A DNA stretch of 64,000 nt from Escherichia coli (GCF_041248615.1 NZ_CP158426.1), one strand, 5' to 3'; counted from the stretch's first letter, positions 22,701 to 28,700 are shown. Numbers: made by a program.

Positions 22701-25700
22701 ACGACATGCTGGACAAAGCCTGGGGACTGGAGCCGGAAAGCCGTTTAAGCTGCCAGGCGCGCGTTACCGACGAAGATTTAGTGGTCGAAATCCCGCGTTA
22801 CACTATCAACCATGCGCGTGAGCATTAACAGAGGTTAGTATGGGACTTAAGTGGACCGATAGCCGCGAAATTGGCGAAGCACTGTACGATGCGTATCCCG
22901 ATCTTGATCCGAAAACGGTTCGATTCACCGATATGCATCAGTGGATTTGCGATCTGGAAGATTTCGACGACGACCCGCAGGCATCCAACGAGAAAATCCT
23001 CGAAGCGATTTTGTTAGTCTGGCTGGACGAAGCCGAATAATTTCCGCGTCATGCTTCACGCCGCAGATGCGTTGGCTGCGCTCGTTCACCCCAGTCACAT
23101 AGTTATCTATGCTCCTGGGGCTTCACTCACTTGCCGCGTGATTCGGCCTTTTGGCCTCACCCCTTTGGGGCCAGCGCAAGCGCTGTTCAAAACGCAATGC
23201 GTTTTGTCCTGCAACGCGAATCATTTAGCGGAAAAATCCTGGGGCTGCCAACTGGCGGCCCTTTTACAAAGAAGGATAACTAAAATGACAGAAGCGATGA
23301 AGATTACCCTCTCTACCCAACCTGCCGACGCGCGCTGGGGAGAAAAAGCGACTTACAGCATTAATAATGATGGCATTACCCTGCATTTGAACGGGGCAGA
23401 CGATCTGGGGCTGATCCAGCGTGCGGCGCGCAAGATTGACGGTCTGGGCATCAAGCATGTTCAGTTAAGCGGTGAAGACTGGGATGCGGATCGCTGCTGG
23501 GCATTCTGGCAAGGTTACAAAGCCCCGAAAGGCACACGTAAAGTGGAGTGGCCGGATCTGGACGATGCCCAACGGCAGGAACTGGATAACCGCCTGATGA
23601 TCATCGACTGGGTGCGTGACACCATCAACGCACCGGCGGAAGAACTGGGGCCATCGCAACTGGCACAGCGTGCTGTTGATCTGATCAGCAATGTCGCGGG
23701 CGATCGTGTGACTTACCGGATCACCAAAGGCGAAGATCTGCGTGATCAAGGTTATATGGGGCTGCACACGGTCGGACGCGGTTCAGAACGTTCTCCGGTA
23801 TTGCTGGCGCTGGATTACAACCCGACTGGCGATAAAGAAGCGCCAGTGTACGCGTGCCTGGTTGGTAAAGGCATCACCTTTGATTCCGGCGGCTACAGTA
23901 TCAAACAGACCGCATTTATGGACTCGATGAAGTCGGACATGGGCGGCGCGGCAACGGTTACCGGGGCGCTGGCGTTTGCCATTACGCGCGGACTGAACAA
24001 GCGCGTGAAGCTGTTCCTCTGCTGTGCGGATAACCTGATCAGCGGCAACGCGTTCAAACTGGGCGATATTATTACCTATCGCAACGGTAAAAAAGTTGAA
24101 GTGATGAACACTGATGCGGAAGGGCGTCTGGTGCTGGCCGATGGCCTGATTGATGCCAGTGCGCAGAAACCGGAACTGATCATTGATGCGGCGACCCTCA
24201 CCGGGGCGGCGAAAACTGCGCTGGGTAATGATTATCACGCGCTGTTCAGTTTTGACGATGCGCTTGCCGGTCGCTTGCTGGCGAGTGCCGCGCAGGAGAA
24301 TGAACCGTTCTGGCGTCTGCCGCTGGCGGAGTTCCACCGCAGCCAGCTGCCGTCTAACTTTGCCGAACTGAACAATACCGGAAGCGCGGCGTACCCGGCA
24401 GGCGCGAGCACGGCGGCGGGCTTCCTGTCGCACTTTGTTGAGAACTATCAGCAAGGCTGGCTGCATATCGACTGCTCGGCGACTTACCGTAAAGCGCCGG
24501 TTGAACAGTGGTCTGCGGGTGCTACGGGACTTGGTGTGCGCACGATTGCTAATCTGTTAACGGCGTAAACGTCTTATTTGGCCTACAAAATTGCGAAAAT
24601 CCAATAGATTGAGATTCCCTTGTAGGCCTGATAAGCGTAGCGCATCAGGCACTTGTGCCCCGAACGTTGAATGAATTGTGGTTCTTATGTCCGAAACAAA
24701 AAACGAACTTGAAGATCTGCTGGAAAAAGCAGCAACCGAACCGGCGCACCGCCCGGCCTTTTTCCGTACTCTACTGGAATCCACCGTCTGGGTGCCGGGT
24801 ACGGCGGCGCAGGGCGAGGCTGTGGTTGAAGATAGCGCGCTTGATTTACAGCACTGGGAAAAAGAAGACGGCACCAGCGTCATTCCTTTTTTTACCTCGT
24901 TAGAAGCACTTCAACAGGCGGTTGAAGACGAACAGGCATTTGTCGTAATGCCCGTTCGCACATTGTTTGAGATGACCCTTGGCGAAACGCTCTTCCTTAA
25001 TGCCAAACTGCCAACCGGTAAAGAATTTATGCCGCGTGAAATCAGTTTGTTGATTGGTGAAGAAGGAAATCCGCTGAGCAGCCAGGAAGTACTGGAGGGC
25101 GGTGAATCGCTGATATTATCGGAAGTCGCAGAGCCGCCAGCACAAATGATTGATTCACTCACCACCTTATTTAAAACTATTAAGCCGGTGAAGCGTGCTT
25201 TTATTTGTTCAATTAAAGAGAACGAAGAGGCACAGCCTAATTTACTTATTGGCATTGAAGCCGATGGTGATATCGAAGAAATTATTCAGGCGGCGGGAAG
25301 TGTAGCGACCGATACATTACCTGGCGATGAACCCATCGATATTTGTCAGGTGAAAAAAGGGGAAAAAGGAATTAGCCACTTTATTACCGAACATATTGTG
25401 CCATTCTATGAACGTCGCTGGGGTGGTTTTTTGCGTGACTTTAAACAGAACCGGATAATCTAAAATATGCCGCCCCAAAGGGCGGCATTCGGGCTTACCT
25501 GCTGTTCTGAAGGTTGTTAACCACCAGTAAATTGTTGCCGGAGAGACTCCGGTTATTATTTACCTCGGTTAACAGCGCACCAGAAACAATAAGTACGATA
25601 CAAAAGCACCGTATCTTCATTGTGCGGTCCATGCGAAGACCGCATCACGACAGCACCACTGGCGATATTGCCGCGATAGCAAGCGCTGTGAAACACCTGC

Positions 25701-28700
25701 ATTTACGGCCATGGAACATCCTTTCCTTAAGCCAGCGCCCGTTTGCGAGACGGCGGAAAGGGCCGGTGTCGATAATACGCTAAATAAACAATGATTACTC
25801 TCTTTCGCTGTGTAAGTTCACAGAGATATTGCAATTACCTCCGGATAAGTAAGGGGAGATTGCACTATGCAAATGCAGCATCTGATGGTTGGCTATCCTA
25901 AGTACTACCAAACGGCCGATTATGCGTTGAGGCTTTCAGTGATGGCTGATACAGCAACAATGAGAATGAAGGCTCTGCACTTCTGGGATAAACACGGTAT
26001 TTCTGCAGCTTCTGAAGCCTTTGGCGTGTCCTGCCGCACGCTTTACTGGTGGCGTCAGTTACTGAACAAGGGAGGACCTGAGGGGCTAATCCCGCACAGT
26101 AAGGCACCTCTGGTGCGACGAAAAAAGCACTGGCATCCCGATGTGCTGAAAGAGATTCGACGGCTGCGGACAGAGCTGCCGAACCTCGGTAAAGAGCAGA
26201 TTTTTGTTCGCCTGAAGCCCTGGTGCGAACAGCGCTATCTGGCCTGTCCAAGTGTTTCCACCATCGGCAGAATGATCGCTGCCGCACACGATAAAATGCG
26301 AATGATACCTGTGCGTCTGGGCTCGCGGGGGAAGGCACTGCTTGTCAAAAAGCGGTCTGCCAAACCCCGCAGACCAAAGCACTACCGCCCGGTAAAGACA
26401 GGTGAGCTCATTGGGATGGACGCCATTGAGCTCAGAATGGGCGAACTGCGTCGCTATGTCATCACCATGATCGACGAATGCAGCAATTACGCGCTGGCGC
26501 TGGCTGTACCGTCGCTCAACAGTGATATCGTCAATCACTTCTTCAGCCGTGCAGCCCGGCTGTTCCCGGTCGGTATCAGTCAGATAATCACAGATAACGG
26601 AAAAGAGTTCCTGGGAAACTTCAACAAAACGCTGCAGGAAGCCGCTATCAAACACCTCTGGACCTATCCCTACACGCCAAAAATGAACGCTATCTGTGAA
26701 CGTTTTAACCGGACGTTAAGAGAGCAGTTTATTGAATTTAATGAGATTTTACTCTTTGAAGATCTGGCGCTATTTAATCAGAAGCTGGGGGAATATCTGG
26801 TACTGTATAACAGCAAAAGGCCCCATAAGGCGCTCGCACTAATGACGCCCGTGGAATATATTTTAAGAGAGAACAAAAATTGCAATATGTGGTGGACCCA
26901 TACATTCGCTTGACAAAAAGAGAGTTACTGGCGAGTATTGCTTTGCTGTGAAGCACCTGCGTTGCTCCGACAACACAAGTCAACCTGCTGGAAAGGCCGC
27001 GAACCAGACCAGCAATAAAAAACCGCCAAATTCGGCGGTTTTTTATTGCCTGTAAAAAGCTTATTTCAATGGCTCAACCGGTAAATCTGCCCGTGCGCCC
27101 CATTCACTCCATGCGCCGTCGTACAGTTTCACGTTTGGCACATCCAGCGTCGCGAGTGCCAACAAAACCACGGCTGCCGTTACACCAGAACCGCAACTGA
27201 CGATAATAGGTTTGTCATAACTTACGCCGCGACCAAAAAATATCGCATCCAGTTCATCGGTCGTTTTTAGTTCGCCTTCACGTACCAGTTCTGTCCACGG
27301 AACGTTAAACGCGCCGGGAATATGTCCGCGACGTAAACCTGGGCGAGGTTCATCAACTTCTGCGTTAAAACGTGCAGCCGGGCGGGCATCAATAATTTGC
27401 GCCGTATTTTCATGGCTTGCCAATAACACATCGGTGACTTTCACCACGGCTTCAGGATTAAACGTGGCGTTAAACTCTCCTTCCGGCAGCTCTACTGCAC
27501 CTTCTTCTAACAGCAGATCATCGCGCTGCCAGCCTGCAAGTCCACCCCCCAGAATCGACACTTTCTCTACACCAAAGGTGCGCAGCATCCACCATGCTCG
27601 TGGGGCTGAGAAAAGATTACCTTCGTCATAGACAATCAGGTGCTTATCCTGGTTAACGCCTAATTCACGCATCGCCACGGCGAACGTTTCCGGGCGCGGC
27701 AGCATGTGCGGAAGCGGGGAAGTGTGATCAGAAAGCGCTTCGATATCAAAAAACACTGCGCCGGGAATATGTCCATTCAGATACTCCTGAGCAACGTTAC
27801 GATCTTCCTGTCCAGGCGACGCCATGCGGGCATCAATAATCTGAATTTCCGGGTCATCAATATGTTCGGCGAGCCAGTCGGCTCCTACAAACCATGTCGT
27901 GGACATAGGCATCTCCATTTTTGCCGGGGTTAGGCTAAATTGTCGGATGTTTAGTGAAAGGCGACAAGCAAAAGAGGCTGATTTGGCTGTCTGAGCCACA
28001 ATTCTCACTAAAATTCGGATTGTATGGGCGTGATACTGAATTACATAACGTAAATTCTCACGCATAATAATTATTCGACGTTGCTAACGGGCCATTGTGG
28101 CAGGGATGAAAAATGAAAAAGTTACGCGTAGCCGCCTGCATGCTAATGCTGGCGCTGGCAGGGTGCGACAACAACGATAACGCGCCAACAGCGGTGAAAA
28201 AAGATGCGCCTTCTGAAGTTACTAAAGCGGCTTCTTCAGAAAACGTGAGTTCAGCAAAACTTTCCGCGCCGGAGCGACAAAAACTGGCCCAACAGAGTGC
28301 CGGTAAGGCGCTGACATTGCTGGATCTCTCTGAAGTTCAACTTGATGGCGCAGCCACGCTGGTGCTGACGTTCTCCATTCCTCTCGACCCGGATCAGGAT
28401 TTCTCACGCGTTATCCATGTCGTCGATAAGAAAAGCGGCAAAGTGGATGGTGCCTGGGAGCTGTCAGATAATCTTAAAGAGTTGCGTTTACGCCACCTCG
28501 AACCGAAACGTGATTTGATCGTCACTATTGGCAAGGAGGTCAAAGCACTCAACAACGCAACCTTCAGTAAAGATTACGAAAAAACTATAACTACCCGCGA
28601 TATCCAACCCAGCGTCGGTTTTGCCAGCCGTGGCTCGTTGTTACCCGGTAAAGTTATTGAAGGGCTGCCGGTAATGGCGCTCAACGTTAACAATGTCGAT

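Follow-up and report, generated by a model that had tools for sequence, protein, structure and literature searches.

An ISKpn28-like IS481-family element between the intact timP and timR genes of Escherichia coli, at the edge of the putative timR -35 hexamer

The window, a stretch of 64,000 nucleotides of Escherichia coli DNA (NZ_CP158426.1), holds between sseB and sseA the type I toxin-antitoxin locus timP/timR (RyfA/RyfB) of enterobacteria and an insertion sequence (IS) of the IS481 family (Table 1). Gene calls made by PGAP were read from NZ_OW967178.1, a record 100% identical to the window. The layout agrees with the published description of timPR. In Salmonella, E. coli and Shigella, the locus likewise lies between sseB and sseA, with an mRNA of about 300 nt, a small hydrophobic ORF near +147, and a divergent sRNA that is complementary to the mRNA 5′UTR and ends in an intrinsic terminator (PMC7667032, PMC11228461, PMC13000454). 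Unlike the published loci, the window has its normally back-to-back promoters parted by the 1.1-kb IS, and we found no mention of an IS at this site in the timPR literature searched. An earlier note on this DNA had suggested RyfA and a small toxic-protein locus in the spacer, and the Rfam match, the PGAP annotation and PMC7667032 bear this out. The 1.1-kb single-ORF IS481-family insertion that it described between sseB and sseA is also present, with boundaries that are corrected here.

RyfA, now recognised as the mRNA for the type I toxin TimP, matched the Rfam model RF00126 with 320.5 bits (gathering score 80) over model positions 1-296 of 296, without truncation, and at E = 1.3e-89 this match is beyond chance. 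Translation places the TimP ATG at +147 of the mRNA, and the protein is WP_004974226.1, identical in the empty-site strain TUM1586. In Salmonella, the timP ORF extends from +145 to +261, and TimP is a toxic protein located in the inner membrane (PMC7667032). A single terminator serves both sseB on the plus strand and timP/RyfA on the minus strand. Its hairpin, ATGCCGCCC/GGGCGGCAT, had already been picked out in the earlier note; it is followed by a T-run on the minus strand and is the RyfA/timP terminator. The putative -10 hexamer of timP was placed by counting from 25766, the 5′ end in the Rfam match, and the core promoter region that this implies remains joined to timP down to -43.

The seed and terminator of the antitoxin RNA TimR are plus-strand features found rightward of the timP 5′ end; at empty sites, they adjoin it. 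The gene displays the three properties described for timR (PMC7667032): it is divergent from and upstream of timP, it is complementary to the timP 5′UTR, and it ends in an intrinsic terminator. The seed (26945-26963) is predicted to pair with positions +64 to +82 of the timP mRNA in a 19-bp duplex that includes 2 G-U pairs, with a dG of -37.1 vs -23.1 +/- 2.7 for shuffled seeds. In the haplotype of EC6868, the timR seed and its timP target vary in concert, with matched changes on both sides. Both the inverted repeat and the fold show the TimR terminator (27012-27049) as a hairpin with 19-nt arms followed by a T-run, and it is common to the convergent sseA. TimR has been seen on Northern blot in CFT073 and CH138. 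No Rfam family matched the TimR region, which gave a sub-threshold AgrB-like match at 26966-27047. The promoter hexamers of both genes and the TimR 5′ end were derived by reading the sequence. For timR, this yields a perfect and intact TTGACA with GAGTAT 17 nt past it, an arrangement (TTGACA-17 nt-GAGTAT) that the second timR-like copy of EC6868 likewise displays. A simple promoter scan called neither the timP nor the timR promoter; the GAGTAT of timR is too weak to come within its reach.

Table 1. Features of the sseB-sseA spacer and its borders, in coordinates of the window
Feature	Position	Strand	Basis
sseB CDS, left spacer border	24687-25463	+	PGAP annotation, ORF list
RyfA = timP mRNA, full length, uninterrupted	25462-25766	-	Rfam RF00126
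Bidirectional intrinsic terminator, ATGCCGCCC/GGGCGGCAT	25467-25488	both	inverted repeat, terminator scan, 3′ hairpin of Rfam ryfA alignment
TimP toxin ORF, 41 aa, MKIRCFCIVLIVSGALLTEV...	25495-25620	-	PGAP 'small toxic inner membrane protein TimP'
Predicted TimR-binding site, timP 5′UTR, mRNA +64 to +82	25685-25703	-	direct repeat with 26945-26963
Putative timP -10 hexamer TATTAT	25772-25777	-	sequence reading relative to Rfam 5′ end
Host inverted repeat, left arm ACTCTCTTT	25797-25805		inverted-repeat listing
Target-site duplication TTCGCT, left copy	25804-25809		empty-site alignment, junction table
IS481-family element, 1095 bp, GTGTAAG...CCCATACA, ISKpn28-like	25810-26904	+	copies at unrelated loci
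IS subterminal inverted repeat, 11 bp, perfect, ATATTGCAATT	25826-25836, partner 26878-26888		inverted-repeat listing
Transposase ORF, 348 aa, single, no frameshift	25867-26913	+	ORF list
Target-site duplication TTCGCT, right copy	26905-26910		empty-site alignment, junction table
Putative timR -35 hexamer TTGACA, perfect, intact	26910-26915	+	sequence reading
Host inverted repeat, right arm AAAGAGAGT, within timR promoter spacer	26917-26925		inverted-repeat listing
Putative timR -10 hexamer GAGTAT, 17 nt past -35	26933-26938	+	sequence reading
TimR antitoxin sRNA (5′ end approximate)	~26945-27049	+	position, complementarity, terminator
sseA CDS, right spacer border	27061-27906	-	PGAP annotation, ORF list

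The ends of the IS were set by copies at unrelated loci, which carry 6-bp duplications of their own, together with the empty-site alignment. Such duplications were found at at least seven independent sites (TTCGCT, TCTCCT, TTATAT, CACTCT, AAACTT and others), and the termini of the element are imperfect, of the form (G)TGT...ACA. The pair ACTCTCTTT/AAAGAGAGT was rejected as a terminal repeat of the IS, which it resembles, since it belongs to the host DNA and is found at empty sites too. There the two arms are contiguous as ACTCTCTTTCGCTTGACAAAAAGAGAGT, and the repeat is kept in a second haplotype; it brackets the timR -35, and the IS has split its arms apart.

The transposase displayed the Pfam domains HTH_32/HTH_28 and rve/rve_3 and a TDNG motif with D243, while LZ_Tnp_IS481 gave no significant match (E 0.18). 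Its best NCBIfam match by far was the IS481 model, with 219 bits (E 9e-65) against a curated cut-off of 224; IS3 came next at 97 bits. The near-identical proteins WP_016238449.1 and WP_001178394.1 bear the PGAP label 'IS481 family transposase'. No stop codon closes the ORF within the IS: its TGA (26911-26913) is host DNA within the putative timR -35 hexamer, and the ORFs of copies elsewhere terminate 0-11 codons later, according to the flank. IS481 of Bordetella pertussis, the prototype of the family, resembles this element in its single DDE transposase ORF, its length of about 1 kb, its 6-bp duplication and its strong short target motif. The target of IS481 itself, not of the whole family, is NCTAGN, and a target of this kind can provide the stop codon. 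The lineage of the window IS does not follow NCTAGN, and its target NNNNNT|TG, beside a promoter, is unlike the CTAG of IS481. A relative of the element is ISKpn28 of Klebsiella pneumoniae, which is also about 1.1 kb long, makes 6-bp duplications and sits between hok and the Sok promoter. The termini GTGTAAGTTCACA...GGTGGACCCATACA are identical in both elements, as is the subterminal repeat ATATTGCAATT, given as the IR of ISKpn28 (PMC6101004). With 75.5% nucleotide identity to annotated ISKpn28 and 72/348 amino-acid differences, the E. coli element is, judged by its sequence, an IS distinct from ISKpn28.

Counted from the 5′ end of timP, the IS begins 44 bp upstream, and it ends 5 bp before TTGACA, about 40 bp from the TimR start, with its transposase gene co-oriented with timR. 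The final T of the right TTCGCT doubles as the first T of TTGACA, so that the target duplication regenerates the putative -35 and the putative timR core promoter is retained. Integration has thus taken place at the upstream border of the timR promoter, as defined by this -35.

To see where this lineage inserts, we draw on 50 distinct insertion contexts from a metagenome scan with a 25-mer that also matches ISKpn28, so that the set is a mix of two related elements. The right flank read NNNNNT|TG in 28 of them (1.6% expected per site; P about 1e-37), and T|TG is the sole strongly conserved signal of the insertion-site logo. A -10-like hexamer followed 16-18 bp on in 11 of 17 independent TTG classes, against 9% of all TTG sites (P 3e-8) and 13% of intergenic TTG sites (P 1e-6). 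The same hexamer occurred in 6 of 22 non-TTG contexts (null 3.9%, P 1.5e-4), four of which also had a -35-like TTTACT, GTGACA or TTTTCA. Insertions at -35-like hexamers are always co-oriented. Of the 50 contexts, 16 lacked both T|TG and a -10-like hexamer, some of these being old copies of 93% identity or copies with no duplication. As a pattern, then, the usual placement of the lineage is directly 5′ of a -35-like TTG hexamer with a -10-like hexamer at promoter spacing, and no description of such precise, co-oriented insertion at a promoter -35 edge was found in the literature searched. Insertion at a set position with respect to a promoter, instead of at a long specific sequence, has parallels: the eukaryotic retrotransposons Ty3 and Tf1 target Pol III start sites and Pol II promoters, respectively, and IS186 has a hotspot in the E. 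coli lon promoter, where it recognises a GC-rich motif between -35 and -10. The likeness is one of analogy only, and any interaction of the transposase with RNA polymerase or sigma-70 would be hypothetical.

Many of the targets, and the commonest kind among them, are Sok/SrnC antitoxin promoters of hok loci. At these, an annotated HokD or Hok-family gene lies left of the IS, Hok and SrnB-like translations were recovered, and in six loci the Rfam sok model RF01794 adjoins the right end of the IS (88-118 bits; gathering score 59). The same hok/Sok layout is seen for ISKpn28 on Klebsiella plasmids and for a copy of 99.5% identity carried by a Salmonella plasmid, and the duplications at plasmid hok sites differ (CCTCCT, TCTCCT, AAACTT). 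A further target, in Klebsiella prophages, has the Q antiterminator gene on one side and the lysis genes on the other. Insertion at hok loci separates the hok leader from the hok Shine-Dalgarno sequence and ORF and should therefore silence the toxin, in contrast to the timPR insertion, which leaves the toxin mRNA uncut. In K-12, IS150 and IS186 reportedly adjoin hokA, hokC and hokE, as Pedersen and Gerdes are said to have described in 1999. Working independently, Durrant et al. (bioRxiv 10.1101/527788) found homologues of hok/sok close to insertion hotspots of E. coli and K. pneumoniae and interpreted insertions there as adaptive disruption. The timPR case is similar in that a type I toxin-antitoxin locus is repeatedly hit by an IS. 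It goes beyond that report in that one IS lineage takes one exact nucleotide, the antitoxin -35 edge, in one orientation, and in that the pattern reaches timPR and sites outside toxin-antitoxin loci.

Based on these findings, we read the window as carrying a timP/timR locus with both genes intact, into which an intact ISKpn28-like element of the IS481 family has inserted between the back-to-back promoters according to the -35-edge habit of its lineage, and we hold this reading with a probability of about 0.8. The cause of the promoter-edge placement is a matter of inference. The transposase might read no more than a short motif close to T|TG(A/C), with selection producing the excess of promoters and of hok and timPR sites. 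T|TG alone is strongly conserved in the logo, parting the toxin ORF from its leader at hok is plausibly advantageous (cf. Durrant et al.), and ISKpn28 is able to enter an ORF when selected, as inside mgrB under colistin selection (PMC6101004), so that the promoter preference is not absolute. Against this, a -10-like hexamer stands at 16-18 bp 5 times as often as at intergenic TTG sites and is present also where TTT or GTG replaces TTG. If selection acted for harmlessness, any site upstream of a promoter ought to be acceptable, rather than a single nucleotide and orientation, and the toxin is not silenced by the timPR insertion. We consider a purely selective origin of the excess possible, though at clearly less than even odds; part of the promoter and hok enrichment could nevertheless reflect survival under selection rather than choice by the transposase.

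Because the putative timR core promoter is retained and timP keeps 43 bp of upstream DNA, both RNAs would be expected still to be produced in the IS carrier, with TimP still repressed. The timP and timR promoters would be uncoupled, 1.1 kb apart, each having lost its native upstream DNA. A transposase transcript would traverse timR and stop at the TimR terminator, carrying anti-timP sequence in its 3′ end. A change of expression, which the earlier note also raised, may still occur. It is conceivable that the IS has been retained as a beneficial rewiring of timPR, for instance through more TimR from transposase read-through or through altered RyfA levels that act on stress resistance and virulence. 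The transposase ORF, which lacks a stop or terminator of its own, must read into timR, and the IS has parted the arms of the conserved repeat that surrounds the putative timR -35. RyfA influences stress resistance and virulence in UPEC and APEC, and a laboratory transposon insertion adjoining ryfA in CFT073 lowered stress tolerance. We nonetheless regard such a benefit as unlikely, given that the insertion is rare (0.24% of genomes), that the simple promoter scan found no outward-facing promoter at either IS end, and that APEC shows little phenotype when timR is deleted, and Salmonella only mild membrane stress.

The identical junction nucleotide and orientation were found in 13 of 5,426 complete E. 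coli genomes. In IAL7255, the duplication is TTTGCT on both sides of the IS, in a different promoter haplotype. The window IS differs by 25 nt from the same-site copies of IAL7255, EC12 and Z1323PEC0014, which are identical to a copy at an unrelated locus (0 differences/1095 nt). Because timPR has received no fewer than two IS subtypes, with two duplication sequences, we take these insertions to be independent. The position could instead be an accident, a single ancient, near-random insertion that was inherited or recombined, made by an IS with no meaningful site preference. So few carriers would suit this, gene conversion can homogenise IS copies, and the flanks of the window and EC12 diverge by 2-4%, similar to the 2.3% divergence of their IS, so that this comparison alone is no proof of independent insertion. 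We find an accident very improbable, however, since TTCGCT and TTTGCT each flank their own IS on both sides, one of the two subtypes at the site matches unrelated-locus copies exactly, the alleles of pepB, sseB, timP and sseA vary among carriers, and the T|TG junction recurs in unrelated contexts.

Least credible of all is the suggestion of the earlier note that the IS disrupted the RyfA sRNA and toxic-protein locus, or a removal of the antitoxin: the IS does lie within the sseB-sseA spacer, at most 44 bp from RyfA and close to the TimR start, but it sits beside a full-length RyfA and not inside it, with TimP unchanged, the TimR seed, body and terminator intact and able to pair with timP, and both putative core promoters kept thanks to the target duplication. 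The earlier note had itself named an sRNA intact on one side of the IS as grounds for refuting disruption, and this is what the window shows.

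The spacer between sseB and sseA houses a standard timPR locus, and the IS has landed beside its genes without interrupting either of them. The sole strong match in an Rfam search of the spacer was ryfA (RF00126), at 25462-25766 on the minus strand; it reaches 320.5 bits, where the gathering score is 80, and spans the whole model (positions 1-296 of 296). RyfA serves as the mRNA for TimP, a type I toxin. The antitoxin TimR (formerly STnc2070, or RyfB) is an sRNA transcribed divergently, starting a short distance upstream of timP; it has complementarity to the timP 5'UTR and an intrinsic terminator at its end (PMC7667032). 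A pseudoknot required for timP translation is the target of TimR, which destabilises it (PMC11228461). The earlier note had suggested that this spacer hosts RyfA and a small toxic-protein locus, and the end-to-end RF00126 match, the PGAP annotation of TimP and the published timPR system bear this out. Its suggestion that the IS may have disrupted RyfA was wrong, as the element lies beside the full-length match, not inside it, and timP and timR are both intact. Positions 25400-27100 are 100% identical to NZ_OW967178.1, from E. coli isolate 362. An ordinary REP-like palindrome (gcctgataagcgtagcgcatcaggc) occupies 24587-24650 in the pepB-sseB spacer, where Rfam also gave a weak match to ES036 (CssrF; 24.3 bits against 37.6).

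Features of the timPR locus and its IS, in window coordinates
Feature	Coordinates	Strand	Remarks
sseB	24687-25463	+	pepB precedes
sseB-sseA spacer			1597 bp
RyfA/timP terminator hairpin	25467-25488		hairpin flagged in the earlier note
timP	25495-25620	-	PGAP 'small toxic inner membrane protein TimP', 41 aa
putative timP -10, TATTAT	25772-25777	-	read from sequence
IS	25810-26904		1095 bp, GTGTAAG...CCCATACA, 6-bp duplication TTCGCT
transposase ORF	25867-26913		348 aa, HTH and rve/DDE domains
putative timR -35, TTGACA	26910-26915	+	perfect; read from sequence
putative timR -10, GAGTAT	26933-26938	+	17 nt past TTGACA; TimR seed about 7 nt further; read from sequence
TimR terminator hairpin	27012-27049		19-nt arms and T-run; also serves convergent sseA
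sseA	27061-27906	-	yfhM next

No TimR family model exists in Rfam. The plus-strand segment 26945-26963 (GCTGTGAAGCACCTGCGTT) repeats 25685-25703 in direct orientation, so that an RNA read from it would pair with the timP mRNA from +64 to +82. The predicted seed duplex has 19 bp, including two G-U pairs, and a predicted dG of -37.1 kcal/mol, against -23.1 +/- 2.7 for shuffled seeds. This seed-only calculation replaced a full-length TimR-timP duplex prediction, which was dropped as uninformative because it ignores intramolecular structure. In haplotype EC6868, the timP site and the timR seed are both altered (GCTGAGACGCGCTTGC) and still match each other, which at the level of sequence is the covariation that a real interaction should produce. 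Thus, the three published hallmarks of TimR, namely divergent position, 5'UTR complementarity and an intrinsic terminator, are all present. A second timR-like copy in EC6868 again displays TTGACA-17 nt-GAGTAT ahead of a different RNA body, which is why we read this motif in the window as the probable timR promoter. A simple sigma-70 consensus scan of both strands of the region called no promoter, and so backs neither the putative timP and timR promoters nor an outward-facing IS promoter. The 3' half of TimR (26966-27047) gave a sub-threshold Rfam match (32.7 bits vs 40) to AgrB, the sRNA antitoxin in the dinQ type I system, which probably reflects a similar stem-plus-terminator layout and not homology.

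An empty site in strain TUM1586 (the timPR locus without the IS) and copies at unrelated loci were aligned with the window to set the borders of the IS. A host 9-bp inverted repeat, ACTCTCTTT/AAAGAGAGT, flanks the element and reads ACTCTCTTTCGCTTGACAAAAAGAGAGT at empty sites. It was rejected as the terminal repeats of the IS, since it is contiguous host DNA at empty sites, and annotators should not take it for the IS ends. The insertion is a single-ORF IS481-family element, as the earlier note described it. The best NCBIfam match of the transposase is the IS481 family, at 219 bits, slightly below the curated cut-off of 224 (next family 97). PGAP labels near-identical proteins 'IS481 family transposase'. 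The element is an IS481-family member close to ISKpn28. IS481 itself targets NCTAGN, whereas the element in the window does not. Its ORF contains no stop within the IS, and the terminating TGA at 26911-26913 is host DNA. Judged from its sequence, the transposase looks intact, with the catalytic TDNG aspartate (D243) present. A private change in the window copy, Asn253 (26623-26625), lies 10 residues past that aspartate and is Asp in all other copies compared, which include both subtypes (sequence groups of IS copies) and a Salmonella plasmid copy; it was rejected as a catalytic defect because D243 is intact.

The geometry of the insertion is exact with respect to both genes. The left end of the IS lies 44 bp upstream of the timP 5' end (25766), so that timP retains everything down to -43, and the right end lies 5 bp before TTGACA. 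The T that ends the duplication also opens the putative timR -35, and the hexamer is therefore left intact. Putative start sites of the back-to-back promoters, about 78 bp apart at empty sites, are 1.1 kb apart with the IS; each promoter is cut off from the DNA that natively lay upstream of it, and the IS splits the inverted repeat that surrounds the timR -35. This repeat, with arms of 9-11 bp (25797-25805 and 26917-26925 in the window; contiguous at empty sites, for instance at 1898-1925 of locus L002), brackets the timR -35, overlaps the timP upstream region and is conserved in both promoter haplotypes. It could be an operator. We infer that timP mRNA and TimR are both still expressed, and that transposase transcripts would have to run on through timR to end at the TimR terminator. 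Annotators should not score the IS allele as disrupted, as RyfA/timP and TimR are intact. RyfA affects stress resistance and virulence in UPEC and APEC, and natural IS alleles are therefore ready-made variants: with ryfA and timR 1.1 kb apart, they can be used to ask whether the back-to-back promoter arrangement matters.

An IS beside a known toxin-antitoxin locus is ordinary, and the interesting part is the insertion rule. The element recurs at this very site. The left junction, in the same orientation, was found in 13 of 5,426 complete E. coli genomes, from hosts that include humans, pigs and dogs and with varying PepB, SseB, TimP and SseA protein alleles. In IAL7255, the IS is flanked on both sides by the duplication TTTGCT, and the promoter haplotype differs from that of the window at 8 of the last 50 bases. 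The timPR-site copies of IAL7255, EC12 and Z1323PEC0014 show 0 differences in 1095 nt, both among themselves and against a copy from an unrelated locus. The window copy differs from them at 25 positions, but at only 7 from the subtype that occupies a hokD site and also occurs on a plasmid. RM14723 carries, in order, a complete timPR, a truncated second timP, the IS and a second timR. The distinct duplication, the IS subtypes and the RM14723 arrangement argue for independent events. The comparison of the window with EC12 is not decisive alone, since flank divergence (2-4%) is about that of the IS (2.3%). The left duplication in Z1323PEC0014 reads TTCCT for TTCGCT, a 1-bp deletion that is either a post-insertion mutation or an assembly error.

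The same junction and a promoter-like context occur across unrelated sites. The final 25 nt of the IS served as the query against public metagenome contigs; with genome copies added, this yielded 129 right-hand junctions in 50 distinct contexts. The flank NNNNNT|TG, which places the IS directly 5' of TTG, was present in 28 of them (chance 1.6% per site, P about 1e-37), and no other flank position was strongly conserved. After merging hok-type sites as one class, 17 independent TTG classes remained, and 11 of these displayed, 16-18 bp past TTGNNN, a hexamer resembling a -10 (second base A, sixth base T and at least 3/6 matches). Background rates are 9% over all TTG sites of the window (P 3e-8) and 13% over intergenic ones (P 1e-6). 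The hexamer was also found in 6 of the 22 non-T|TG contexts (null 3.9%, P 1.5e-4), four of which have a -35-like TTTACT, GTGACA or TTTTCA instead of TTGNNN. Contexts with neither T|TG nor the hexamer are mostly old copies (~93% identity; for example galF-yegH and iss-iroB) or junctions without a duplication. Orientation is constant, with the transposase gene always reading toward the promoter-like element.

The largest target group is hok/sok. K_EC180 has an annotated hokD immediately left of the IS, and in six loci a match to the Rfam sok model directly borders the right end. This match is on the hok-sense strand, and so the 157-nt model is taken to cover the hok leader. The duplication here, TCTCCT or CCTCCT, corresponds to the hok Shine-Dalgarno in reverse complement and is followed by TTGCCT/TTGCAA, 17 nt, TAACCT/TATCCT/CATACT and then the Sok RNA with its terminator. 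ISKpn28, with identical termini and 75.5% identity to the window IS, behaves likewise, occupying the same position at hok on Klebsiella plasmids. A Salmonella plasmid copy (99.5% identical) sits at an srnB-like locus with a very dissimilar duplication, AAACTT, followed by TTGACC-17 nt-TACAAT. Another recurrent site, in lambdoid Klebsiella prophages, has the Q antiterminator gene on one side and the holin/lysozyme genes on the other; it displays an Rfam STnc100 match and TTGAAA-17 nt-TAAATT, which looks like a late promoter. The STnc100 matches (L055 13188-13383; L138 1501-1846) fall between Q and the lysis genes, and this 'sRNA' may therefore be a late-promoter leader transcript. At hok, the insertion cuts the toxin ORF off from its promoter and leader and should silence the toxin; timR is divergent and does not overlap timP, so the toxin mRNA is untouched at timPR. 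ISKpn28-type copies match more than 1,500 Klebsiella plasmid records. In all three copies inspected, on Klebsiella and E. coli IncF plasmids (L134-L136), hok is split from its leader, which may leave these plasmids with an inactive post-segregational killing module.

Collectively, these data lead us to assign a probability of about 0.8 to a real preference of this IS lineage for T|TG. Tentatively, and at somewhat below even odds, we propose that the lineage senses promoter architecture or bound RNA polymerase beyond this motif. The ISKpn28-like branch of the IS481 family would recognise the sigma-70 promoter itself, or the RNA polymerase-promoter complex, and not a short motif alone. It would insert exactly at the upstream border of the -35 hexamer and in the orientation of the promoter, which the target duplication would preserve. 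The stop-less and terminator-less transposase gene would then borrow a stop codon, along with the terminator of some short RNA under strong transcription (for example Sok, SrnC, TimR or a prophage late-leader RNA). Selection surely contributes to the targets observed, since natural insertions are survivors and silencing of hok may be favoured; ISKpn28 can also insert inside mgrB under colistin selection (PMC6101004). Yet selection for harmlessness leaves unexplained one exact nucleotide and one orientation across unrelated duplications. The pattern probably stems from a choice by the transposase and not from survival. A hairpin starting at TTG (TGCC...GGCA and similar) was rejected as a general target, as it occurs in 4 of 17 independent classes against a 21% null (P = 0.5), although it holds within hok loci. 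A tRNA promoter as the target at L129 was dismissed, the tRNA being 850 bp away.

IS150 and IS186 adjoin hok loci of K-12. That type I toxin-antitoxin loci are insertion hotspots is not a new observation: hok/sok homologues are reported near such hotspots in E. coli and K. pneumoniae (Durrant et al., bioRxiv 10.1101/527788). That report excepted, our literature search, which left ISfinder and most subscription journals outside its reach, returned no IS at timPR, no ISKpn28 with hok and no promoter targeting by the IS481 family; in it, the lineage, the -35-edge position, the fixed orientation and the extension to timPR and prophages were undescribed. The insertion rule is directly testable. Promoter recognition, if true, would parallel in bacteria the promoter-targeted integration of retrotransposons and give a mechanistic reason for insertion hotspots at type I toxin-antitoxin loci. 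Landing at promoter edges, if real, would supply a concrete mechanism for the reported hok/sok clustering of mobile-element insertions, offer a testable bacterial system for promoter-directed transposition, and show a route to silenced type I toxins (hok), both plasmid and chromosomal, or to uncoupled regulation (timPR).

A near-full-length copy of the element is present somewhere in 1,064 of the 5,426 genomes. Multi-copy genomes include IAL7255, with the element at 37 places, RM14723 with 13 and Z1323HEC0355 with 12. Old copies, ~93% identical, occur at galF-yegH on many chromosomes (p10A) and at iss-iroB on ColV-type plasmids (p47-1826); annotation lists them as 'missing C-terminus' pseudogenes, since the ORF itself contains no stop. 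A scan of one genome per species with the right-end 25-mer, uninformative on targets, gave a single match, SFGN01000096.1, assigned to a Lachnospiraceae MAG and probably a misbinned enterobacterial contig, which suggests that the element seldom occurs outside E. coli and Klebsiella.

Some E. coli carry timR in tandem (EC6868, L005 360-1133; RM14723, L010 1180-1870), either as two timR-type genes or as a full timPR pair with a truncated second timP and a second timR. This is reminiscent of the RyfA1/RyfA2 duplication of Shigella dysenteriae. The seeds differ between the tandem timR copies, each fitting its own partner, and an orphan antitoxin copy in such loci may cross-protect.
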